Assembly (NCBI RefSeq): GCF_054482595.1
Contig: NZ_CM137008.1
Direction: 5' to 3' (one strand)
Length of the DNA: 64,000 nucleotides
How positions within the stretch are numbered: the stretch's first letter is position 1; each line of letters starts with the position of its first letter. This document shows positions 1,657 through 16,576 of this stretch, piece after piece. The translations under genes were made by a program, and so were the position numbers. Below the pieces are notes generated by a model. It saw nothing but the letters and a program-made list of their open reading frames with translations, ran no database searches and was not told the DNA's origin.

Positions 1657-1705
1657 ACCGCTCAACCGCAAAACTGACCGCTTACGTCCCTAAAATAACC
1701 ACTCA
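1657..1705 (+). promoter_or_regulatory. Three direct repeats of ACC(G/A)CT(C/T)A (ACCGCTCA 1657-1664, ACCGCTTA 1677-1684, ACCACTCA 1698-1705), putative BtsR/YehT binding site in the btsT promoter
   Basis: Repeats read directly, with 12-nt and 13-nt spacers, about 140-180 bp upstream of btsT. The motif matches the published YehT direct-repeat consensus as I recall it. Confidence 0.55.
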
Positions 1706-1840
1706 GTTATTTACCTTACTTTACGCGCGCGTAACTCTGGCAGCATCACTGCAGGATAGCGGTCAATTTACCTCCTCAAACGCAACGCAAACCTAGAACG
1801 GCTTCGGCCAACTATTAATCAATACATGCCAGGTTTTACT

Positions 1841-3991
1841 ATGGATACGAAAAAACTATTCAAGCACATACCCTGGGTGATTCTCGGAATCATCGGTGCA
1901 TTCTGCCTCGCGGTAGTTGCATTACGTCGGGGGGAGCACGTCAGTGCCCTGTGGATCGTGGTCGCCTCTGTGTCGGTGTATCTGGTGGCGTATCGCTACT
2001 ACAGTCTGTACATCGCCCAGAAGGTGATGAAACTCGACCCTACGCGCGCGACGCCTGCGGTTATTAACAACGACGGTCTGAACTACGTTCCGACCAACCG
2101 TTACGTGTTGTTTGGTCACCACTTCGCCGCTATCGCCGGTGCCGGTCCGCTGGTCGGTCCGGTTCTCGCCGCACAGATGGGCTACCTGCCTGGCACGCTG
2201 TGGCTGCTGGCGGGGGTAGTACTGGCCGGTGCGGTTCAGGACTTTATGGTGCTGTTTATCTCCTCTCGCCGTAACGGCGCATCTCTCGGTGAGATGATCA
2301 AAGAAGAGATGGGACCAGTACCGGGGACTATCGCGCTGTTTGGCTGTTTCTTAATCATGATCATCATCCTCGCCGTTCTGGCGCTGATTGTGGTTAAAGC
2401 CCTGGCCGAAAGTCCGTGGGGTGTCTTCACCGTTTGCTCAACCGTACCGATTGCGCTGTTTATGGGTATCTACATGCGCTTTATCCGTCCGGGGCGTGTG
2501 GGTGAAGTCTCTGTTATTGGTATCGTGCTGCTGGTTGCCTCTATCTACTTCGGTGGCGTGATTGCTCACGATCCGTACTGGGGTCCGGCACTGACCTTTA
2601 AAGACACCACCATTACCTTCGCGCTGATTGGCTATGCGTTTGTTTCCGCACTGCTGCCGGTGTGGCTGATCCTCGCACCGCGCGACTATCTGGCAACCTT
2701 CCTGAAAATCGGCGTTATCGTCGGCCTGGCGCTGGGTATCGTGGTGCTGAACCCGGAACTGAAAATGCCAGCGATGACCCAGTACATTGACGGTACTGGC
2801 CCGCTGTGGAAAGGCGCTCTGTTCCCGTTCCTGTTCATCACCATCGCCTGTGGTGCGGTATCTGGCTTCCACGCGCTGATCTCTTCCGGTACGACGCCGA
2901 AACTGCTGGCTAACGAAACCGACGCGCGTTTCATTGGCTACGGCGCAATGCTGATGGAGTCCTTCGTGGCGATTATGGCGCTGGTTGCTGCGTCCATCAT
3001 CGAACCGGGTCTTTACTTCGCGATGAACACCCCACCTGCTGGCCTTGGCATCACCATGCCTAACCTGCATGAAATGGGTGGCGAGAATGCGCCGATCATC
3101 ATGGCGCAGCTGAAAGACGTTACCGCACACGCGGCGGCGACCGTCAGCTCCTGGGGCTTCGTGATTTCGCCAGAGCAGATCCTGCAAACCGCGAAAGACA
3201 TTGGAGAGCCTTCTGTCCTGAACCGTGCAGGTGGTGCGCCGACGCTGGCGGTAGGTATCGCTCATGTGTTCCACAAAGTGCTGCCGATGGCTGACATGGG
3301 CTTCTGGTATCACTTCGGTATTCTGTTCGAAGCCCTGTTCATCCTGACCGCGCTGGATGCTGGTACCCGTTCTGGCCGCTTTATGCTGCAAGACCTGCTG
3401 GGTAACTTCATCCCGTTCCTGAAAAAAACCGACTCTCTGGTTGCCGGTATCATCGGTACTGCGGGCTGTGTGGGTCTGTGGGGCTACCTGCTGTATCAGG
3501 GCGTGGTCGATCCGCTGGGCGGCGTTAAGAGCTTGTGGCCGCTGTTCGGTATCTCCAACCAGATGCTGGCAGCCGTGGCGCTGGTACTGGGCACCGTTGT
3601 GCTGATTAAGATGAAGCGCACCCAATACATCTGGGTAACTGTTGTTCCGGCCGTATGGCTGCTTATCTGCACCACCTGGGCGCTGGGCCTGAAACTGTTC
3701 AGCACCAACCCGCAGATGGAAGGCTTCTTCTACATGGCAAGCCAGTACAAAGAGAAGATTGCTAACGGTACTGACCTGACGGCGCAGCAGATTGCCAACA
3801 TGAACCACATCGTTGTGAACAACTACACCAACGCGGGCCTGAGTATTCTGTTCCTGATTGTGGTGTACAGCATCATCTTCTACGGTTTCAAAACCTGGCT
3901 TGCGGTGCGTAACAGCGACAAACGTACTGACAAAGAAACACCGTACGTTCCAATCCCGGAAGGCGGCGTGAAGATCTCTTCGCACCACTAA
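1841..3991 (+). CDS. btsT: Pyruvate/H+ symporter BtsT (CstA family; formerly YjiY), 716 aa
   Basis: ORF-track ORF 1826-3991 gives a CstA-family polytopic membrane protein. The start is taken at the ATG at 1841 (MDTKKLFKHIPWVILG...), which matches K-12 length; the ATG at 1826 lacks an SD. Confidence 0.9.
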   Translation: MDTKKLFKHIPWVILGIIGAFCLAVVALRRGEHVSALWIVVASVSVYLVAYRYYSLYIAQKVMKLDPTRATPAVINNDGLNYVPTNRYVLFGHHFAAIAGAGPLVGPVLAAQMGYLPGTLWLLAGVVLAGAVQDFMVLFISSRRNGASLGEMIKEEMGPVPGTIALFGCFLIMIIILAVLALIVVKALAESPWGVFTVCSTVPIALFMGIYMRFIRPGRVGEVSVIGIVLLVASIYFGGVIAHDPYWGPALTFKDTTITFALIGYAFVSALLPVWLILAPRDYLATFLKIGVIVGLALGIVVLNPELKMPAMTQYIDGTGPLWKGALFPFLFITIACGAVSGFHALISSGTTPKLLANETDARFIGYGAMLMESFVAIMALVAASIIEPGLYFAMNTPPAGLGITMPNLHEMGGENAPIIMAQLKDVTAHAAATVSSWGFVISPEQILQTAKDIGEPSVLNRAGGAPTLAVGIAHVFHKVLPMADMGFWYHFGILFEALFILTALDAGTRSGRFMLQDLLGNFIPFLKKTDSLVAGIIGTAGCVGLWGYLLYQGVVDPLGGVKSLWPLFGISNQMLAAVALVLGTVVLIKMKRTQYIWVTVVPAVWLLICTTWALGLKLFSTNPQMEGFFYMASQYKEKIANGTDLTAQQIANMNHIVVNNYTNAGLSILFLIVVYSIIFYGFKTWLAVRNSDKRTDKETPYVPIPEGGVKISSHH

Positions 3992-4000
3992 CCGTGTTTA

Positions 4001-4027
4001 GCCCCGCTTCGGCGGGGCTTTGTTCTT
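4001..4027 (+). terminator. GC-rich hairpin (gccccgc-ttcg-gcggggc) followed by a T-run, between btsT and yjiX
   Basis: Perfect 7-bp stem with a 4-nt loop followed by tttgttctt, read directly. Confidence 0.6.
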
Positions 4028-4040
4028 ATCAGAGTGAACT

Positions 4041-4244
4041 ATGTTTGGTAACTTAGGACAGGCAAAAAAATATCTCGGCCAGGCGGCGAAGATGTTGATT
4101 GGCATTCCAGACTACGACAACTACGTCGAGCATATGAAGACCAACCATCCCGACAAGCCGTACATGAGCTATGAAGAATTCTTCCGCGAACGCCAGAACG
4201 CGCGCTACGGCGGCGATGGTAAAGGCGGTATGCGCTGTTGTTAA
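4041..4244 (+). CDS. yjiX: YbdD/YjiX-family small protein (DUF466), 67 aa
   Basis: ORF-track ORF immediately downstream of btsT, the conserved CstA-family partner arrangement. Confidence 0.85.
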
Positions 4245-4254
4245 TGGAGAGAGC

Positions 4255-5211
4255 ATGAACCCGATTGCAGTTACCCTACTCACCGGTTTTTTAGGCGCGG
4301 GCAAAACCACCCTGCTGCGCCATATTCTTAATGAACAACACGGCTACAAGATTGCCGTGATTGAAAACGAATTCGGCGAAGTCTCCGTTGATGATCAACT
4401 GATTGGCGACCGCGCCACGCAGATCAAAACGCTGACCAACGGCTGCATCTGCTGTTCGCGCTCCAACGAGCTGGAAGACGCACTACTCGACCTGCTGGAT
4501 AATCTCGACAAGGGCAATATTCAGTTCGACCGTCTGGTCATTGAATGCACCGGCATGGCCGATCCCGGCCCGATTATTCAGACCTTTTTCTCCCATGAGA
4601 TTTTATGCCAGCGTTACCTGCTGGACGGCGTGATTGCGCTGGTGGATGCGGTACATGCCGATGAGCAGATGAACCAGTTCACCATCGCCCAGTCCCAGGT
4701 TGGCTACGCCGACCGTATTCTGCTGACTAAAACCGACGTCGCAGGCGAAGCAGAAAAACTGCGCGAACGCCTGGCGCGCATCAACGCCCGTGCACCGGTC
4801 TACACCGTTACCCACGGCGACATCGACCTGGGCCTGCTGTTCAACACCAACGGTTTTATGCTGGAAGAAAACGTCGTCAGCACCAAACCGCGTTTCCACT
4901 TTATCGCGGATAAACAAAACGATATTTCGTCGATTGTGGTAGAACTGGATTACCCGGTAGATATCAGCGAAGTTTCCCGGGTGATGGAAAACCTGCTGCT
5001 GGAATCGGCGGATAAACTACTGCGTTACAAAGGGATGCTATGGATTGACGGCGAACCTAACCGCCTGCTGTTCCAGGGCGTCCAGCGCCTCTACAGCGCC
5101 GACTGGGACCGCCCGTGGGGCGATGAAAAACCGCATAGCACGATGGTGTTTATCGGGATTCAGCTGCCGGAGGAAGAGATTCGGGCGGCGTTTGCGGGGT
5201 TGAGGAAGTAA
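4255..5211 (+). CDS. yjiA: CobW/COG0523-family P-loop GTPase YjiA, 318 aa
   Basis: ORF 4171-5211 contains a GxxGxGKT P-loop (LLTGFLGAGKTTLL) and a CxCC motif (GCICCS). Start is taken at the ATG at 4255, which is preceded by GGAG and sits just after the yjiX stop. Confidence 0.9.
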   Translation: MNPIAVTLLTGFLGAGKTTLLRHILNEQHGYKIAVIENEFGEVSVDDQLIGDRATQIKTLTNGCICCSRSNELEDALLDLLDNLDKGNIQFDRLVIECTGMADPGPIIQTFFSHEILCQRYLLDGVIALVDAVHADEQMNQFTIAQSQVGYADRILLTKTDVAGEAEKLRERLARINARAPVYTVTHGDIDLGLLFNTNGFMLEENVVSTKPRFHFIADKQNDISSIVVELDYPVDISEVSRVMENLLLESADKLLRYKGMLWIDGEPNRLLFQGVQRLYSADWDRPWGDEKPHSTMVFIGIQLPEEEIRAAFAGLRK

Positions 5212-5534
5212 TCACCTTAACCTACTCATACGAAGCGGACGAGGATAAAATCCTTTCATTTTCCGTTCGCTTCATTATTTTATTTTCTTTCCAATGCCCA
5301 TTCAAATTAAAAATATAATTCTGCCATAATTTCCTGAACACAGATGTAATTACATTGCCACCTCTCATACTTCCATATGACTAGTCGTCCTATTGGGGCG
5401 TGATAGATGTATTAATTTCCAAATATGCAAACATTCTGATACAGTCCCAAAAAGAAAATTATTACCAACCCAGACAATCAGCAAATAAATTAATAACAAT
5501 TGAATTATAATCAACACGAATACAAGAGATTAAC

Positions 5535-7385
5535 ATGGCAACAATAATCCCAACAATCAGTAGCTGCAACGATAAAATTACTGCCGGAGAGAAAAGGCTG
5601 GCAAGAATTCTGGAAAGAGGACTAGGCGAAGAGTGCTGCTGTTGGTATGACATTCCCACGGGTGATAAGCATCTTCACCCAGATTTTATGATACTTTCGC
5701 CAGAAAAAGGCATTATTTTTCTCGAGGTAAAAGATTGGTTTATTACAAAAATAAAAAAAGCCAACAAGTCTAATGTTTTGTATGAGACACAAAATGGCAT
5801 TCAATCTTTAAAGAATCCGATAGAACAAGTTAGGCGATATGCTTTCGAAGCTGTAAACCAGTTAAAAAAAGACCCCCTATTGTGCCAACAGGAAGATCGT
5901 TACAATGGCAATCTTCTTTTCCCCTATGGATATGGCGTCTACTTTAGTAATATTACACGAGAAGCATTAAATAATAAATTTACTCAAGAAGAGCTGCTCG
6001 GGATCTTCCCATCAGATCTTATCATCTGCAAAGACGAACTAAATGAATTCATGTCAAAAGGGGATGTTTCATCCAAAATACATTCGTTGATTAAATATGA
6101 CTTCAAATGTCATGCTACACAAGAACAGTTGAACAGGATTAGATGGCACTTATACCCCGATGTCAGAATAGAAAGGGAAAAGAGAAGTAAAAACTGTGAT
6201 GAATTTAGTGTCGATGCACCAACCATCATTTCTATCCTGGATACTCAACAGGAACAACTTGCCAGAAGTATGAGAGACGGCCACCGAATAATTCATGGTG
6301 TTGCAGGTTCAGGTAAGACATTGATCCTCTATCATCGCTGTCAGGAATTAGCGAAAAAAAATGACAGCGAAAAGCCAATACTTGTCATTTGCTACAATAT
6401 TACTTTAGCCAAAAAACTTCGGTCGATGTTCATCAATCATCCCTTTGAAGAGAAAATAAAGGTTAATAATTTTCATGCTTGGTGTTTCCAACAAATTAAA
6501 AAAAACAAGATCACCATTCCAGAAGGGGATAATATTTTTGAAAATATGGAGCAAGCGTTGACTGATGGTTTCAACACAGGAAAAATAAAACCAGAACAAT
6601 ACAGCGCTGTATTAATTGATGAAGGACATGATTTTAAGCCCGAATGGTTAAAAATCCTGGCAAAAATGACTGACTCTCAGGACGAGAATTTGCTATTTCT
6701 TTATGATGATGCTCAGTCAATTTATCAAAAAAAGAAAGCATTAGACTTTACACTGTCCAGCGTGGATATTAAAGCGACAGGACGCACAACTATTCTTAAT
6801 ATAAATTATAGAAACACACAACAAATTCTACACTTTGCCAGTTGCATTGCATTTAATTATCTTAATAGCCATATCGATAGTTCTTTAACCTATCATAAAC
6901 CTGCTGCGGGAGGAATGAATGGCGATTATCCCAAGCTTGAACATTTCGACACACAGGACGAAGAAATAGCAAGAGCAGTCAAATGGATTACAGAGCAAAA
7001 TGAACAAGGGATTCCGTGGTCTGAAATTGCTATACTTAGTCCTTCAACTCACATCCTTTCTAACTCTCTAAGTTCTGTACTTGAATCGAAAAATATCCCC
7101 TTTAATCTTATTGTAAGCTCTGCAGATAAAAAGTCCTGGACGCCAGAACAAGAGCGTATTTCTGTTATGCCATTACCCAGCAGCAAAGGACTTGAGTTTC
7201 ACTCAGTTGTCATTATTGATGCAGCGAGAACACGGGATAATAGTGATGATTTGAGTGAGGATATAAAGAGACTCTATGTAGGTTTTACCCGAGCACGTTG
7301 CAATCTCTTGGTAACCTTGCACGGTGAAGGTGCGTTAAATGAGCATCTACTAAGAACCTATAAGCAAAGCCCACAATATATGTAA
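5535..7385 (+). CDS. NERD-domain / SF1 (UvrD-like) helicase fusion protein, 616 aa; candidate single-gene nuclease-helicase defence protein
   Basis: N-terminal NERD-like motif (GEKRLARILERGL ... HPDFMILSPEKGIIFLEVKDW). Helicase motifs: Walker A HGVAGSGKT, motif II VLIDEGHDF, KGLEFHSVVI, and C-terminal LYVGFTRAR. The gene is strongly AT-rich. Confidence 0.7.
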   Translation: MATIIPTISSCNDKITAGEKRLARILERGLGEECCCWYDIPTGDKHLHPDFMILSPEKGIIFLEVKDWFITKIKKANKSNVLYETQNGIQSLKNPIEQVRRYAFEAVNQLKKDPLLCQQEDRYNGNLLFPYGYGVYFSNITREALNNKFTQEELLGIFPSDLIICKDELNEFMSKGDVSSKIHSLIKYDFKCHATQEQLNRIRWHLYPDVRIEREKRSKNCDEFSVDAPTIISILDTQQEQLARSMRDGHRIIHGVAGSGKTLILYHRCQELAKKNDSEKPILVICYNITLAKKLRSMFINHPFEEKIKVNNFHAWCFQQIKKNKITIPEGDNIFENMEQALTDGFNTGKIKPEQYSAVLIDEGHDFKPEWLKILAKMTDSQDENLLFLYDDAQSIYQKKKALDFTLSSVDIKATGRTTILNINYRNTQQILHFASCIAFNYLNSHIDSSLTYHKPAAGGMNGDYPKLEHFDTQDEEIARAVKWITEQNEQGIPWSEIAILSPSTHILSNSLSSVLESKNIPFNLIVSSADKKSWTPEQERISVMPLPSSKGLEFHSVVIIDAARTRDNSDDLSEDIKRLYVGFTRARCNLLVTLHGEGALNEHLLRTYKQSPQYM

Positions 7386-7403
7386 AAATGATAAATTATC
7401 TCC

Positions 7404-7437
7404 ATAACGCCCGGTAACGCTGTACCGGGCGTTATGA
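7404..7437 (+). terminator. Perfect 14-bp inverted repeat hairpin downstream of the NERD-helicase gene
   Basis: cataacgcccggta-acgctg-taccgggcgttatg read directly; no strong T-run follows. Confidence 0.4.
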
Positions 7438-7626
7438 ATGCATATCTAAGATATTAGTCACGCATGATAGCCGCCACCAAAAACACCATCATCTCCCTCG
7501 CCTCTTTGCGGTGATAAAAGCGTACCATTTTGCTGTTAAATTCCAGCGTTTTAGCCGCTGGAATTAACAAGATCAAACTTCCGGCAACGAAGATTCAGTT
7601 ATTACAAATAATTACTGGAAAAAGAG

Positions 7627-7824
7627 ATGAAAAGCGTGGTTGACAACACATCGAAATATCCTGACTGGAGTAAACGCGATGATATTAAAGCGAAACTGAA
7701 AGTTGAACTTATTCTGCTTCTACACAAGCATAAGTTCCCGCCAGTAGCGAATGATGATGTTTATATGGGTGTGCTGGCACAGGTAGAGAATTTTAAAGAA
7801 CATCATATGAGTGCTTTAAATTAA
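7627..7824 (+). pseudogene. 65-aa ORF, possible C-terminal remnant of a displaced restriction-system gene (hypothesis only)
   Basis: Short ORF upstream of symE in the position occupied by hsd genes in K-12. The motif KRDDIKAKLKVELILLLHKHKFPPV resembles my recollection of type I HsdR C-terminal tails. Unverified. Confidence 0.25.
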
Positions 7825-7943
7825 TCATGAAGGCTGGATACACTTTGTTATCCGGCCATTGTGAATTAATGTTAATTTTTCTTCCAAATCTTTCCAATAA
7901 CGCTTTTATTATTTTCTATTTTTAGCTGGACTTTCCCTGTATT

Positions 7944-7963
7944 TACTGATGATATATCCAGAT
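7944..7963 (+). promoter_or_regulatory. LexA (SOS) box-like CTG-N10-CAG element upstream of symE
   Basis: TACTGATGATATATCCAGAT read directly about 78 bp upstream of the symE ATG; symE is a known SOS-induced gene. Confidence 0.5.
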
Positions 7964-7984
7964 ATTTAGCGCGGTGCGGATGTG

Positions 7985-8065
7985 CGCCAACACACCCGCA
8001 CCGCTCATCACAATCACTATTTTCAAGGAATAGCAGTTATGACTGACACGCATTCTATTGCACAA
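7985..8065 (-). ncRNA. symR: Expected position of SymR antisense sRNA (type I antitoxin) overlapping the symE 5' end; approximate coordinates
   Basis: Placed from the known symE/SymR arrangement, not from detected promoter or terminator signals. A 9-bp inverted repeat GCGGTGCGG/CCGCACCGC lies at 7971-8004. Confidence 0.3.
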
Positions 8066-8380
8066 CCGTTCGAAGCAGAAGTCTCCCCGGCAAATAACCG
8101 TCAATTAACCGTGAGTTATGCGAGCCGCTACCCGGATTGCAGCCGTATTCCCGCCATCACCCTGAAAGGTCAGTGGCTGGAAGCCGCCGGTTTTGCCACC
8201 GGCACAGCGGTAGATGTCAAAGTGATGGAAGGCTGTATTGTCCTCACAGCCCAACCACCCGCCGCCGAAGAGAGCGAACTGATGCAGTCGCTGCGCCAGG
8301 TGTGCAAGCTGTCGGCGCGTAAACAAAAGCAGATACAGGAATTTATTGGGGTGATTGCGGGTAAACAAAAAGTTGCCTGA
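8039..8380 (+). CDS. symE: SOS-induced toxin SymE (type I toxin-antitoxin), 113 aa
   Basis: Internal ATG at 8039 of ORF 7982-8380 gives [33 protein letters not shown]..., matching SymE. Confidence 0.85.
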
Positions 8381-8388
8381 TACATTGA

Positions 8389-8419
8389 CCCGGTAGCACC
8401 AGTGCTACCGGGTATTATT
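8389..8419 (+). terminator. Hairpin plus T-rich tail between convergent symE and the GmrSD-like gene
   Basis: cccggtagca-ccag-tgctaccggg followed by tattatt, read directly. Confidence 0.5.
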
Positions 8420-8426
8420 CGCCGCG

Positions 8427-10520
8427 TTATACCAACGCGCTCTCCATCTGTTTTTCAAATGCCTGACGAATTAATCCCATAATGTAAGGAAGTTGTGCGA
8501 GGTCGCTGAAACAAATTTCCACATCACCATTGCCCCATCGCCCAACATTTGTCACATCTTTGGCAATACCTTTCGGATCGACCAGTTCATGAAACTGCAT
8601 ATTAAGCGACAATCGCAGTCGGCTTTTTTGCGGCACAACATCAACAAAATTCGTTTCAGCTTTAAACGCAATATATAGCTTCAATACTTCCTGCGTGATC
8701 CCTGCGTCCAGGCGCATAACTTCATCGCGAAGATGATCGAATAACACCCGGCTATGCGAACCATCAGCAAGAAAAGGATAATCACTCAGGCTGTAACTGG
8801 TTTTGTTTTCAGGCTGCCCCCGATAAACAGCTAAAACCTCTTCAGAAAGAGAAGGCGCTTGCCAGACCTGAATCGCGAGATCGGCCAGACGATCGGCTCG
8901 GGCGTGAATGGCGGCTTCATCCCATTTTTCGCACTGTCCAAGACCGATATTCAAATAGAGCGGGCTATGCTTAAAGCCGTCTTCAATATCGCGTTTTTCC
9001 GCGAAAGGTCTGTCACTGTAGCGGGAGTTATAGCGCGTTAATGTGAGATTCCCCAACGTATGCAACAGTTCTTTATGAATGCGTTGCCAGTCACTTCCCA
9101 GCTCTTCACGCCATTTAGCCGACAAATTTTCGTTCTGCGGCATAATATGCTCAATCGTAAACTCTTCCACGCGCTCTCTGCGTTTATCGTTTTCCAGTCG
9201 TCGTAACCAGTAGCTGCGACTACGGAAGTTATAGAGATCGCGAACTTTTAATTCCCGTTTAAATTCATCATCGTTGGGGAAACGACGATATGAAGGTAGA
9301 TTCAAAAAATGTACCTGAATACTTTCCAGATAATTTTCTTTATTAATAACTTTATAAAAAGTGGCAAATGTCTTGTTCAAAGAATTTGTCGGAATTGCAC
9401 ATACTGCACGGCGGAAAACATAAGATTCAATTAAACGAATTATGCTCAGAAAATCTTCGTGAGACAAAACGCCATTTTTATAGTCATGATAAAGCGCCAG
9501 TAAGAAAGGATACGCCACATCGACCTTTAACTCGCGCAAATCCTGAAAAGCCGTAGCAAGCGATTTGTCACTTTCTTTTCCCAATGCCATTGCACAGTAA
9601 TACTCCGCGTAGATATGAATATCTTCAACCAGCCGATCTACGCCTTTTTCAGCAACACTCTGGCTGCGGGCATGGAGTTTAAATGCCTCATAGACTTCAT
9701 CTGTCCGAGGGATCTCCCCCGTTTTTACCGTCAGATAATGACGCATAAAACTGTCAAAATATTCGCTGTAACCTTGCTGACCAAAGGCGACTTCCATTGG
9801 ACGCCAGTGATCTTCATACAATCGGGTTTGATGCTCTGGTTCGAGGCCCATCAGAATAAAATTGCGCACCAGATCGGCCTGACTTAACGCCTTACCGGTG
9901 GAGTTCATACTTTCAAAAATCAGTTGCGGATTATCCTGACCACGATTAAGCGCCACATCGACAATTAATAACTTTGCTAACCCACGACATAAGGGGATCA
10001 AGTCATCACCGAGTTTGGCAATTTGTTCATCAAAGAAAGTAAAGTTTTCCATTATTCGATGGGAATAGTTTTCTGGCATTGGTCTTTGTTTTATTAACGC
10101 CAGTAAACTGTCTTTATCAGTCTCGGTCAGCAGTAATTTAAAACCTTTCTCGCCGGACTCATAAGGATTGAGCAAATAATAATTACGCAATTTCATTGCC
10201 GAAAAGCCATCAAAAACTTCGTCTTCGCCAAGATGGCGCGATAAAGCCTCAATCAGCAACATTGCGGTCGTCAGCCGCTGCTGACCATCAATGACCAGCA
10301 ACGGAGAAATACCAGAAACCTGATACAATCCCTGCTCTATATAAACAACCGAACCGATAAAATGCGCTGATATATCGTCACGCTTTCCTGCACGAATGAT
10401 GTCGTCCCAAAGTTGCCGACATTGTTGTTCTGTCCATGAATAAGTCCGTTGATAAATGGGAATAACAAACTGCTGCGAACGTTTTAAAAAATCGAGTAAG
10501 CGAGCTTCTGTAGCTTTCAT
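8427..10520 (-). CDS. DUF262 + DUF1524 (GmrSD-family) putative Type IV modification-dependent restriction endonuclease, 697 aa
   Basis: N-terminal DUF262/ParB-like motifs IPIYQRTYSW and VIDGQQRLTT. C-terminal His-Me finger/DUF1524-like motifs FTIEHIMPQ, GNLTL and YNS. Confidence 0.7.
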   Translation of the reverse strand: MKATEARLLDFLKRSQQFVIPIYQRTYSWTEQQCRQLWDDIIRAGKRDDISAHFIGSVVYIEQGLYQVSGISPLLVIDGQQRLTTAMLLIEALSRHLGEDEVFDGFSAMKLRNYYLLNPYESGEKGFKLLLTETDKDSLLALIKQRPMPENYSHRIMENFTFFDEQIAKLGDDLIPLCRGLAKLLIVDVALNRGQDNPQLIFESMNSTGKALSQADLVRNFILMGLEPEHQTRLYEDHWRPMEVAFGQQGYSEYFDSFMRHYLTVKTGEIPRTDEVYEAFKLHARSQSVAEKGVDRLVEDIHIYAEYYCAMALGKESDKSLATAFQDLRELKVDVAYPFLLALYHDYKNGVLSHEDFLSIIRLIESYVFRRAVCAIPTNSLNKTFATFYKVINKENYLESIQVHFLNLPSYRRFPNDDEFKRELKVRDLYNFRSRSYWLRRLENDKRRERVEEFTIEHIMPQNENLSAKWREELGSDWQRIHKELLHTLGNLTLTRYNSRYSDRPFAEKRDIEDGFKHSPLYLNIGLGQCEKWDEAAIHARADRLADLAIQVWQAPSLSEEVLAVYRGQPENKTSYSLSDYPFLADGSHSRVLFDHLRDEVMRLDAGITQEVLKLYIAFKAETNFVDVVPQKSRLRLSLNMQFHELVDPKGIAKDVTNVGRWGNGDVEICFSDLAQLPYIMGLIRQAFEKQMESALV

Positions 10521-10616
10521 TCTGACGTCTTTCCGTGAAACGATGATTTCGCAATAATAACCACTTCCTTGTGGAGGTTATAGAGAAATCCTGTTTATCC
10601 GCGACGAACATACCCC

Positions 10617-10781
10617 TCACTCCACATCCTCCCTGCGTAACCCAATATCCCTCAACCGCTCATCACTCATCTGCTGTAACACTCGTCGGGTCTGCATTTG
10701 CCGCCGCCAACGCCTCACCGCCTGCCAGAGTTGCACAAGTCTGATAAACGGCGTTTTGGCTTTGTTTTCGTGAAATTCCAT
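10617..10781 (-). CDS. yjiS: DUF1127 small protein YjiS (54 aa), missed by the ORF track (below size cutoff)
   Basis: Minus-strand translation MEFHENKAKTPFIRLVQLWQAVRRWRRQMQTRRVLQQMSDERLRDIGLRREDVE, with GAGGAGG SD 5 nt upstream of the ATG at 10781. Confidence 0.7.
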   Translation of the reverse strand: MEFHENKAKTPFIRLVQLWQAVRRWRRQMQTRRVLQQMSDERLRDIGLRREDVE

Positions 10782-12611: not shown

Positions 12612-13556
12612 TTAGTACTCGATCCATGGATCGCGCTTGCTTTCAGGCAAGGGTTGCTCTAATGCCTGCATTTGCTCTGCCGAAAGTCCAGTATATCGTT
12701 GTATCCATTCAGGATCCGCACCGTTCTGCAAAAGCAATCTAAGGAGGCGTTGTTCCCCTTCTTCTTTCCCCTTTTCCATCCCTAACAGCCATCCATCATT
12801 ATGAATTCGCTCTGCAATCGTCATTATTCGCTCCCTGTGTTGTGGCATTCGACGGGTAAGTTCACTGATAAACTCATTAAAACGCGCTTCATCGCCAGTC
12901 AGTAAAATGTAATTTAACAGCGCGGTTATCTGGCTGTCATTAGCGCACCCTGTAACCAGTAATATTACCAGTTGATCAATAAGCCCCATTAGATCGCGCT
13001 GGCGAATATGCTTTTGGATCAACTCCAACAGGGCGACTCTGCGGTGCTGCACAATCTCGTCGTCTGGCACGACAGTGACATCCACCAGCGGGAACGCTGC
13101 AGTATAAACTTTCCGTGCAGTAGTCGGGTCGGCAAATTCGTCCAGCCAGCACAGGGACCAGGGATAAGGACTACGGCTACCGTGATAAAACAGCATCGGG
13201 ATGACCAGCGGTAGCAACCGGCGTTTATCATGCTCTATATGGCGCTGCATCACTGCCATGGTATAGCGCATCAGGCGAAAGGCCATATGAATATCCTCAC
13301 GGCTCTGATGTTCAATCACCACATAGATATAGCCATCGCCTTCCCGGGTCTTTACCGACCACAGAATATCGGAGTGTAGCGCCCGCAATTTTTCATCGAC
13401 AAAGCTGGCGGATTCCAGTTTTAAGCTGTCGAGATCGCACAGTTCACGTAAATCTTTGGGTAAGTGGATCTCCATAAAATCCCGCGCGGTGTCAGGGTGC
13501 ATGAGAAAAGATTTAAATAATGCGTCATGCGGCGTGCTGGTCGTGAAGTTTGTCAT
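12612..13556 (-). CDS. rpnD: Rpn-family recombination-promoting nuclease (YhgA-like PD-(D/E)XK), 314 aa, apparently intact
   Basis: [36 protein letters not shown]... is typical of the Rpn/YhgA family; single uninterrupted ORF. Confidence 0.75.
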
Positions 13557-14022: not shown

Positions 14023-15255
14023 ATGCCACGTTTTTTTGCCCGCCATGCCGCCACGCTGTTTTTCCCGATGGCGTTGATTTTGTATGACTTTGCCGCCTAT
14101 CTTTCGACGGACCTGATCCAGCCAGGGATCATTAATGTGGTCCGTGATTTTAATGCCGATGTCAGTCTGGCCCCGGCTGCCGTCAGTCTCTATCTCGCTG
14201 GAGGCATGGCATTGCAGTGGCTGCTGGGGCCGCTTTCCGACAGGATTGGCCGCAGGCCAGTGCTGATTACCGGGGCGCTCATTTTTACCCTTGCCTGCGC
14301 CGCGACAATGTTCACAACGTCTATGACACAGTTTCTTATCGCGCGTGCAATTCAGGGCACCAGTATCTGTTTTATTGCTACCGTTGGTTATGTCACGGTG
14401 CAGGAGGCGTTCGGACAGACAAAAGGGATCAAGTTGATGGCGATTATCACCTCCATCGTACTGATTGCGCCGATTATTGGCCCGCTTTCCGGCGCAGCTC
14501 TGATGCACTTTGTGCACTGGAAAGTCCTTTTTGCCATCATTGCGGTTATGGGTTTTATCTCATTTGTTGGCTTACTGCTGGCGATGCCAGAGACGGTGAA
14601 GCGCGGCGCGGTTCCATTTAGCGCCAAAAGCGTCTTGCGCGATTTTCGTAATGTCTTTTGCAATCGGCTGTTCCTCTTTGGCGCAGCAACCATCTCTTTA
14701 AGCTATATCCCAATGATGAGTTGGGTGGCTGTCTCGCCGGTGATCCTGATTGACGCAGGCGGCTTAACGACCTCGCAGTTCGCCTGGACACAGGTTCCGG
14801 TGTTCGGCGCGGTGATTGTCGCGAATGCCATCGTGGCGCGTTTCGTTAAAGATCCGACCGAACCGCGCTTTATCTGGCGTGCCGTACCCATTCAACTGGT
14901 TGGCCTCGCGCTGTTGATTATCGGCAATCTGCTGTCACCGCACGTCTGGCTGTGGTCGGTGCTGGGCACCAGTTTGTATGCTTTCGGGATTGGTTTGATC
15001 TTCCCGACCTTATTCCGCTTTACGCTTTTTTCCAATAACTTACCGAAAGGGACCGTCTCCGCATCGCTGAATATGGTGATCCTGATGGTGATGTCTGTCT
15101 CGGTCGAAATCGGCCGCTGGCTGTGGTTTAACGGCGGTCGCTTGCCGTTTCATCTGTTAGCCGTCGTGGCGGGCGTTATCGTCGTTTTCACCCTGGCAGG
15201 ATTGCTCAATCGCGTGCGCCAACATCAGGCTGCCGAGCTGGCGGAGGAGCGGTGA
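14023..15255 (+). CDS. mdtM: MFS multidrug efflux transporter MdtM, 410 aa
   Basis: 12-TM MFS-like protein. Start is taken at the ATG at 14023, preceded by GGAG; the ORF track used an upstream TTG. Confidence 0.9.
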
Positions 15256-15295
15256 TTTTTGCGCGATCTTGCCGTCAGGCTCTATTCTTAACGTT

Positions 15296-16576
15296 ATGAA
15301 TAAACTCATTGAACTCAGACGCGCCAAAATGTTGGCGCTCTCTTTACTGCTTATCGCCGCTGCTACCTTTGTCGTTACGCTGTTTTTGCCGCCCAATTTT
15401 TGGGTGAGCGGTGTGAAGGCGATTGCCGAAGCAGCGATGGTCGGCGCGCTGGCGGACTGGTTTGCGGTGGTGGCGCTGTTTCGCCGCGTGCCGATTCCGA
15501 TCATTTCTCGTCATACAGCGATTATCCCGCGTAATAAAGACCGGATTGGCGAAAATCTCGGCCAGTTCGTGCAGGAAAAATTTCTTGATACTCAATCCCT
15601 GGTGGCATTGATTCGACGCCACGAACCGGCGTTGTTGATTGGCAACTGGTTTAGTCAGCCAGAAAACGCCCGCCGCGTTGGTCAGCATCTGTTGCAGATC
15701 ATGAGCGGTTTTCTCGAATTAACTGATGATGCGCGTATTCAGCGCCTGCTTAAGCGCGCGGTCCATCGGGCGATTGATAAGGTCGATCTTTCCGGCACCA
15801 GTGCGTTGATGCTGGAGAGTATGACCAAAAACGATCGTCATCAGGTGCTGCTGGATACGCTGATCGCACAGTTGATCGCCCTTCTCCAGCGCGATAAATC
15901 GCGCAAGTTTATCGCCCAGCAAATTGTTCGCTGGCTGGAGAGTGAGCATCCACTGAAAGCCAAAATTCTCCCCACCGAATGGCTGGGCGAACATAGCGCG
16001 GAGTTGGTTTCTGACGCGGTGAATTCTTTGCTTGATGATATCAGCCGCGATCGTGCGCATCAGATCCGCCATGCGTTTGATCGCGCCACTTTTGCCCTGA
16101 TCGACAAGCTGAAAAACGATCCGGAAATGGCAGCGCGAGCCGATGCCGTAAAAAGTTATCTGAAAGAAGATGAAGCTTTTAACCGCTATCTCAGTGAATT
16201 GTGGGGGGATTTACGGGAATGGCTGAAAGCGGATATCGACAGTGAAGATTCTCGTGTGAAAGAACGTATCGCGCGGGCGGGTCAATGGTTTGGCGAAACG
16301 TTAATTGCCGATGATGCCTTGCGGGCGTCGTTAAATGGTCATCTGGAACAAGCCGCGCACCGCGTCGCGCCTGAGTTTTCCGCATTCCTGACGCGCCACA
16401 TCAGCGATACGGTAAAAAGCTGGGATGCCCGGGATATGTCGCGGCAAATAGAGTTAAATATCGGCAAAGATCTGCAGTTTATTCGTGTCAACGGTACGCT
16501 GGTTGGCGGTTGTATTGGGCTAATTTTATATTTGCTGTCGCAGCTCCCGGCCTTGTTCCCCCTCGGCAATTTTTAG
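15296..16576 (+). CDS. yjiN: DUF445 inner membrane protein YjiN, 426 aa
   Basis: ORF 15269-16576; start taken at the internal ATG giving [22 protein letters not shown]... Confidence 0.8.

Follow-up and report, generated by a model that had tools for sequence, protein, structure and literature searches.

The immigration control region (ICR) of Escherichia coli is a textbook defence island, whose cargo is reassorted through recombination within the core genes on either side. The ICRs that have been described share a position, from yjiA to yjiS/yjiR, and a set of modules, namely Type I hsd genes, Type IV genes, symE/symR, brnAT and rpn, and they include remnants, such as the hsdR remnant of E. 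coli C. We analysed a 64,000-nucleotide stretch of the E. coli chromosome (contig NZ_CM137008.1; hereafter the window), in which positions 5212–10616 are confirmed as the ICR, also known as defence hotspot 36. This allele has the position and the modules of the described ICRs, but differs from them in that it carries no functional Type I system and in that its yjiA-side slot is occupied by a NERD + UvrD helicase. We consider it quite probable that the interval is a mosaic ICR allele, with two slots arranged around symR/symE, that was built by recombination and whose functions are those suggested by its protein families.

Much of the setting is established. The cassette-like variation of the ICR (Sibley and Raleigh 2004) is described in the accessible text of PMC3874153 and PMC12707154, and GmrSD homologues in the ICR were noted by He et al. 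2015 (PMC4437046, section 17). According to the EcoSal Plus 2025 review (PMC12707154), some E. coli ICRs have a GmrSD homologue instead of the McrBC locus, and among 8,424 enterobacterial ICRs GmrSD occurs in 12% and McrBC in 6%. The locus, its variability, its anchors, its remnants and the presence of GmrSD in place of McrBC are all already published, and the exact arrangement in the window is already present in 40 RefSeq genomes; the window carries a rare but ordinary allele of this known system.

The gene order in the window is tsr, btsT, yjiX, yjiA, the cargo, yjiS, yjiR, an rpn gene and mdtM, based on the annotation of strain XH990. The ∼7.5-kb stretch around the cargo is 100% identical in several RefSeq genomes, among them XH990, and the window DNA read against the XH990 annotation had 0 mismatches over 7,501 bases. 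The conserved anchors are yjiA on the left, which encodes a GTPase (4256–5211, plus strand; annotation of the identical XH990 record), and yjiS on the right, which encodes a DUF1127 protein (10617–10781, minus strand; XH990 annotation and strain alignments). Homology to K-12 MG1655, based on BLASTN, covers 1658–5211, 7908–8376, and then 10613 onward. The last K-12-homologous base on the left, 5211, is the final base of the yjiA stop codon, and homology on the right restarts at 10613, at the yjiS stop codon; 5212–10616 is exactly the non-K-12 interval, except for the symR/symE block (7908–8376, 92.5% identity), which is the sole block shared with K-12 between the flanks. These breaks at the two stop codons, with a shared symE block, are the outcome of the alignment to K-12 that an annotation made from the letters of the sequence (the initial annotation) had proposed for mapping breakpoints.

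The cargo lies between yjiA and yjiS-yjiR, with btsT/tsr and mdtM/yjiN as outer anchors, as is found for the ICR. The interval is 5.4 kb in the window compared to ∼16 kb in K-12, where it contains mrr, hsdR, hsdM, hsdS, symR/symE, mcrB, mcrC, yjiV and yjiT. The G+C content is 37.1% in the NERD cassette, 38.4% in the gene scars that follow it and 43.6% in the GmrSD gene, but 54.6% in yjiA and 55.2% in yjiR. The initial annotation had described an AT-rich yjiA–yjiS interval with a NERD-helicase gene, symE and a GmrSD-like gene, and we find each of these where it had placed them; its account of the K-12 content as mrr-hsdRMS-symE-mcrBC was correct, although it omitted yjiV and yjiT.

The two halves of the interval are found separately in other strains. 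The SCU-124 chromosome is collinear with window positions 1658–8356 at 97.1% identity, a span that takes in yjiA, the helicase gene, the two scars and the greater part of symE, and in this strain yjiS follows directly after symE; only the left half is present. Strain O157:H7 EDL933 is collinear from 7909 rightward at 96.7% identity, across symE, the GmrSD gene and yjiS and further on, and to the left of symE it carries a type IB hsdRMS along with another Type IV-like gene; only the right half is present. Each half can thus be found without the other, and symE is the internal shared segment where the two half-cassettes join. The proposal in the initial annotation that symE is retained as an anchor, with different restriction genes on both sides, is borne out by this collinearity. 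At the outer ends, comparison of the yjiA junctions of five strains shows that the cassettes diverge right after the yjiA stop codon, and in four strains aligned to the window the right-hand homology restarts at the yjiS stop codon. Nine sampled ICRs hold differing combinations of the same modules, as alternative segments of one locus; the survey of cargo diversity that the initial annotation had envisaged thus finds varied occupants, both in these nine ICRs and in slot counts from complete genomes (below). The ICR of E. coli C, described as ‘empty’ with an hsdR remnant, had been a candidate for the same arrangement, and was ruled out by its gene content, a 550-aa DUF262 gene plus a 5' hsdR remnant, without symE.

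In the arrangement that we propose, the ICR would consist of two slots split by symR/symE, a yjiA-side slot (here the NERD-helicase and the scars) and a yjiS-side slot (here GmrSD). The divider is well defined. The gene symE encodes 113 aa (8039–8380, plus strand) and matches the NCBIfam equivalog PRK13605 at 226.3 bits, against a cut-off of 132. The symR antisense RNA antitoxin (7968–8044, minus strand) matches the full Rfam model RF01809 (positions 1–77) at 91.7 bits, against a gathering score of 61, and overlaps the 5' end of symE, which starts at 8039. SymE is an SOS-induced toxin or nucleoid-associated protein, and symE/symR is an SOS-controlled type I toxin-antitoxin pair. Compared with SymE/SymR of K-12, the window pair has the same position between the hsd and Type IV slots and, with a DNA block 92.5% identical, shows no notable difference.

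The five symE-bearing sequences that we compared split into two forms in the last ∼24 bases (∼8 codons) of symE. The form ending in AGKQKVA is found in the window (8357–8380) and in K-12, and EDL933 is collinear with the window here; the form ending in SSKTPR is found in Nissle and SCU-124 (positions 13093–13113 in one locus). Among these five strains, the symE 3' form tracks the state of the yjiS-side slot, filled or empty. Between the convergent symE and GmrSD genes, a G+C-rich inverted repeat with no strand assigned (8389–8412, read from the sequence) was missed by a terminator scan and is not followed by a T run; it is possibly a two-way terminator.

The yjiA-side slot retains traces of earlier occupants. 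The ‘possible gene remnant’ of the initial annotation is confirmed and resolves into two, from a Fic-family gene and from a type ID (M-S-R order) hsdR gene. The Fic remnant (7475–7564, minus strand) consists of 30 codons, aa 210–239 of 244, with 83% identity to the Fic protein of strain E04 (TBLASTN, E 2.7e-14) and a match at the DNA level as well; in E04, the full Fic gene lies directly beside yjiA. The hsdR remnant consists of two pieces on the plus strand, with ∼100 codons missing between them: aa ∼903–917 (7563–7607; BLASTN against hsdR of Nissle 1917), and aa 1019–1087, the last 69 codons (7615–7821), followed by the stop codon (7615–7824; TBLASTN, 95.7% identity). It also matches positions 967–1027 of 1029 in the PADLOC model REase_I, and is annotated as a pseudogene in RefSeq. 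In Nissle 1917, the order is intact, with brnAT, an Mrr-like endonuclease gene, hsdM, hsdS, hsdR and symE. A functional Type I restriction-modification (R-M) system is gone from the window allele, in which ∼84 hsdR codons are left in the two pieces and hsdM and hsdS are absent. The Fic remnant abuts the hsdR remnant, which itself is internally deleted, and thus several rounds of replacement or deletion preceded the present state.

To place the two halves in the population, we used counts from 5,426 complete E. coli genomes, requiring at least 80% coverage of each query. The whole window arrangement is found in 40 genomes and the NERD-helicase cassette in 100, while this GmrSD gene is found in 1,360 (25%). 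For comparison, K-12-type mcrBC is found in 582 genomes (435 of them at least 99% identical to K-12), mrr in 944, the 550-aa DUF262 gene of E. coli C in 574, brnAT plus the Mrr-like gene in 880 and a full Fic gene in 118. The GmrSD half is a common natural state, and the mrr-EcoKI-McrBC state of K-12 is a minority; the rare part of the window allele is the helicase half only. These counts bear on the claim of the initial annotation that the McrBC position had been taken over by another Type IV-like enzyme. That claim holds insofar as a GmrSD-family gene does occupy the symE–yjiS slot that contains mcrBC-yjiV-yjiT in K-12, but with GmrSD in 1,360 genomes and mcrBC in 582, ‘replacement of McrBC’ is a comparison only and implies no direction of change. 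The interval has no DNA similarity to K-12 mcrBC and the Pfam domains differ, and equivalence to McrBC is one of position and enzyme class only; a ‘functional replacement’ would be a reading of the enzyme family.

The yjiA-side cassette (5212–7464, plus strand, 37% G+C; 97% identical and collinear with SCU-124) contains a single intact gene (5535–7385, plus strand), whose 616-aa product has an N-terminal NERD nuclease domain of the PD-(D/E)xK type joined to a superfamily 1 (SF1), UvrD-like helicase (Pfam NERD at residues 17–110, AAA_19 and UvrD_C; PADLOC). RefSeq names this product ‘3'-5' exonuclease’. The gene is preceded by a 323-bp spacer with a promoter-like site (5301–5330) and is followed by a perfect, terminator-like 14-bp hairpin (7403–7436), and so looks like a self-contained transcription unit. 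The top library match is the PADLOC model C3a187 ‘NERD+UvrD’ (4.7e-141), which aligns residues 1–597 with model positions 1–545 of 559, such that the protein has the full-length architecture of that family, in which an SF1 helicase core is joined to a NERD PD-(D/E)xK domain. The catalytic motifs are all conserved: D50, E64 and K66, the Walker A motif GSGK261T, D362/E363 of the DEGHD box and helicase motifs I–VI are at least 97% conserved in 116 homologues. The C3a187 family was defined by proximity to Type III CRISPR loci in a survey of accessory genes (PMC6546367); a paper on UG/Abi reverse transcriptases had been considered as the source of the name, which is absent there.

The closest described proteins are Nhi of staphylococci, GajB of Gabija and the reverse transcriptase-associated NERD-helicases, which resemble the window protein in that a nuclease and an SF1 helicase occur in a single chain in defence contexts. 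The matches to all three are partial or weak: the RTasNERD-Hel model of PADLOC was matched over its full length (7.8e-23), while the GajB models were matched partially, over the helicase part (∼1e-20). The window gene differs from these systems in that it has no GajA, reverse transcriptase or cas partner; indeed, no GajA-like gene adjoins it. The NERD-domain RNA endonuclease ZwsA, reported in a preprint, was set aside as a comparator since its architecture is different.

Homologues with 57–64% identity recur in other enterobacterial ICRs, where they are always found without a conserved partner. The Leclercia homologue lies directly after yjiA, the Salmonella homologue after yjiA-brnAT and before an hsdS fragment, and the Klebsiella aerogenes homologue directly after yjiR. 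The Yersinia and Photobacterium homologues lie next to island- or defence-type genes, such as large helicase or nuclease genes, an integrase gene or smpB. The recurrence of this single-gene NERD-helicase in the ICR of four enterobacterial genera was not found in the accessible papers and is modestly new: ‘NERD’ occurs 0 times in the ICR review PMC12707154, and the main text of Hochhauser 2023 names no yjiA, McrBC or NERD. Its sporadic distribution (1.8% of E. coli), foreign base composition and recurrence in a defence hotspot make it most likely a stand-alone nuclease-helicase defence protein. Acting broadly like Nhi, such a protein would be loaded onto foreign DNA or onto phage DNA in replication, move along it at the expense of ATP and degrade it with its PD-(D/E)xK site.

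Two observations were made beside the homologues. On a Leclercia metagenome contig, the NERD-helicase gene is closely followed by a CobW_C fragment (9972–10442 in that locus) that resembles a second copy of the 3' end of yjiA and that recombination within yjiA may have left behind. In Vibrio coralliilyticus (7076–7684 in that locus) and Photobacterium damselae (7245–7820), a divergent class I S-adenosylmethionine-dependent methyltransferase of ∼190–200 aa is encoded immediately upstream of the homologue; this pairing is found at two different chromosomal loci, and the methyltransferase may be a conserved partner, one that is missing from the enterobacterial cassette.

The yjiS-side slot contains an uninterrupted GmrSD-family gene of 697 aa (8427–10520, minus strand; Pfam and PADLOC). 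Its product has the domains of the family, with GmrSD_N, the DUF262 or ParB-like NTPase domain, at residues 9–222 (PF03235, 9.4e-35; DGQQR at 78–82), and GmrSD_C, the DUF1524 His-Me finger domain, at residues 415–547 (PF07510, 2.3e-26; EHIMP at 457–461 and N491). A helical linker lies between DUF262 and DUF1524, and a DUF5655 domain at the C-terminus (residues 591–690). The residues E457, H458, P461 and N491 correspond to the D507-H508-N522 site that was mutated in Eco94GmrSD (PMC4437046). In PADLOC, the protein matches Orf5 (2e-223, 741 bits), HEC-06 (1.5e-67, 226 bits) and mREase_IV (4e-28). Its match to SspE covers the N-terminal domain only (E 3e-6).

Similar to Eco94GmrSD and EcoCT596GmrSD, BrxU, SspE and HEC-06, the window protein is a single chain of DUF262 (DGQQR), a helical linker and DUF1524 ((D/E)HxxP) in a defence-island setting. 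It differs from the GmrSD enzymes in its extra C-terminal DUF5655 domain, and the characterised members are only distantly related to it. DUF5655 is not among the additional domains (DUF4268, DUF4357 and DNA_binding_1) that are named in the accessible text of Machnicka et al. 2015. In a fold search with a model of the C-terminal domain alone, DUF5655 is predicted to have a YdhG/YjbR-like fold, an assignment that was not found in the accessible papers and is modestly new. From these families, the protein is most likely a Type IV, modification-dependent endonuclease stimulated by nucleoside triphosphates; the ParB-like DUF262 domain would bind or hydrolyse nucleotide, the His-Me finger of DUF1524 would cut incoming modified DNA, and the YdhG/YjbR-like DUF5655 domain would probably add DNA or target binding.

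Relatives with 70–74% identity are found in Halomonas, Psychrobacter, Oceanimonas and even Kiritimatiella, with the gene inside or adjoining Type I R-M operons. It is part of the operon in Kiritimatiella and Oceanimonas, where the stop and start codons overlap, and the Citrobacter gene is found in the ICR, beside a type I system. This embedding agrees with published reports of RloF (PMC4619093) and of GmrSD-like genes embedded in Type I R-M systems (10.1101/2024.01.29.577857). In the latter, the related HEC-06 was chosen as a candidate, and its pattern of phage defence is reported to differ from that of BrxU. In the window, the GmrSD enzyme is uncoupled from any Type I system. The Kiritimatiella, Oceanimonas and Citrobacter proteins are 70–82% identical to the E. 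coli protein, which is unusually conserved for a defence gene.

Although the GmrSD gene is uninterrupted in the window, the NCBI annotation pipeline (PGAP) splits it in RefSeq into a 387-aa protein and a ‘DUF262 pseudogene, missing C-terminus’ in XH990, 536 and EDL933. The open reading frame (ORF) is intact in XH990, whose DNA is identical to the window, and in E. coli 536, despite the split annotation. In O157:H7 EDL933 the gene is truly split (14047–16139 in that locus), since a run of five G is one base short at nucleotide 801 of the gene (window position ∼9720). When the 1,489 matching genomes were sampled evenly, 11 of the 40 rows drawn were 1 bp shorter, as in EDL933. The split annotation was probably propagated from the frameshifted O157 allele; the mis-annotation of an intact gene was not found in the accessible papers and is modestly new.

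Each part of this account has an alternative that we weighed. The cargo could have been acquired via a mobile element, and there are grounds to consider this: the DNA is AT-rich relative to its flanks, as is typical of acquired DNA, an otherwise identical strain, THO-010, has insertion sequences IS1 and IS5 inside the region, and a phage-type integrase gene is located close to the NERD-helicase homologue in Yersinia. However, no integrase, transposase or recombinase is annotated in the interval, and we found no terminal or flanking direct or inverted repeats beyond chance length around it, which is consistent with cassette exchange via homologous recombination in the flanking genes. Moreover, the boundaries are core-gene stop codons in all strains compared, the left and right halves are independent in SCU-124 and EDL933, and the IS copies of THO-010 are secondary insertions that are not in the window. 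The genes are also chromosomal, at 1,032 of 1,032 places for the NERD-helicase and 1,489 of 1,490 for GmrSD. Acquisition via a mobile element is thus highly improbable; recombination within the conserved neighbours would be the most economical mechanism, with the allele built by successive homologous recombination replacements in yjiA, symE and yjiS, without a mobile element. As for the NERD-helicase, a housekeeping or stress role in DNA repair or replication, with no part in defence, would fit the RefSeq label, the absence of a partner gene, the lack of obvious defence genes among its neighbours in Vibrio coralliilyticus, and the best NCBIfam likenesses, to UvrD, PcrA, Rep and HelD, although these are all far under their cut-offs. 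A housekeeping gene is difficult to reconcile with presence in just 100 of 5,426 E. coli genomes, with a G+C content of 37% and with a place in the ICR of four genera amid R-M, Type IV and toxin-antitoxin genes; in addition, the NERD + UvrD family was first singled out by its Type III CRISPR association (PMC6546367), and NERD domains are reported to be enriched in defence islands (PMC9226505). We regard the repair role as very unlikely.

The remaining alternative, that the GmrSD gene is a decayed pseudogene and the locus a graveyard rather than an active defence island, draws on the split PGAP annotations, on the genuine EDL933 frameshift with about a quarter of evenly sampled alleles 1 bp short, and on the neighbouring Fic and hsdR genes, which are true remnants. 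Yet the window ORF is unbroken over 697 codons, a length that matches that of the 697–701-aa homologues across phyla, and the exact 697-aa form is found in a cluster of 3,852 member sequences. DGQQR, EHxxP and GNLTL are invariant in 119 sequences, including E457, H458, P461 and N491, and the intact ORFs of XH990 and 536 make their split annotations artefacts. Decay of the window gene is thus extremely improbable. Several points nevertheless weigh against a recombination-built allele with two defence enzymes. The case for recombination comes from the mosaic structure, and the proposed functions of both large proteins come from their families. For the helicase, the best model, C3a187, represents a family that is a candidate accessory of Type III CRISPR systems, and cas genes are absent from the interval, from its flanks and from beside the homologues examined; moreover, Nhi is matched in the helicase core only, and not over its full length (residues 235–435 against model positions 183–338 of 470, E 4.6e-9). 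For the GmrSD protein, the closest relative with a solved structure, 9jfl (E 7e-13), is a DUF262 protein that is itself uncharacterised, a sequence search did not detect BrxU, and the ICR homologue APECO1_2080 is 24% identical to Eco94GmrSD (He et al. 2015, PMC4437046), and thus substrate specificity is not transferable from the characterised enzymes. In addition, the full-length AlphaFold model is weak in the catalytic domains (mean predicted local distance difference test score of 67).

Variation in the window extends beyond the ICR. A second variable spot lies 3.5 kb to its left, between tsr and btsT (837–1657); this segment is AT-rich and absent from K-12, and holds a 543-bp hypothetical ORF (1006–1548) that is interrupted by a stop codon, while the EDL933 copy is intact. 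The same spot holds an 11-kb hpa operon in E. coli C, and hydroxyproline-catabolism genes lie just upstream of btsT in strain E04. The Rpn-family recombination-promoting nuclease gene that adjoins yjiR (12612–13556, minus strand) is an intact ORF of 314 codons, while rpnD of K-12 is a pseudogene; an Rpn gene, yjiP, is linked to RecA-independent replacements in the accessible text of PMC4498929. Over its full 64 kb, the window has a G+C content of 46.5%, a low value for E. coli that suggests further AT-rich acquired segments elsewhere in the window.

This analysis provides a precise breakpoint map of a mosaic ICR allele with two layers of scars, supplies the frequencies of slot occupants in 5,426 complete genomes, and flags a systematic RefSeq mis-annotation of an intact Type IV-like gene that is present in 25% of genomes. 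Taken jointly, and with somewhat less than even confidence, we suggest that the NERD + UvrD protein may be an uncharacterised defence system, encoded by one gene and directed against phages or plasmids, that has entered the enterobacterial ICR repeatedly (in Escherichia, Leclercia, Klebsiella and Salmonella), and that GmrSD + DUF5655, which is 70–74% identical across phyla and usually found in Type I R-M operons, may form a Type IV subfamily of its own, whose YdhG/YjbR-like domain would set a specificity other than that of the enzymes for hydroxymethylcytosine (hmC), glucosylated hmC and 5-methylcytosine. The NERD-helicase and the GmrSD-DUF5655 enzyme of the ICR, both abundant in natural E. 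coli, may affect the host range of phages used in therapy and the transformability of wild strains.

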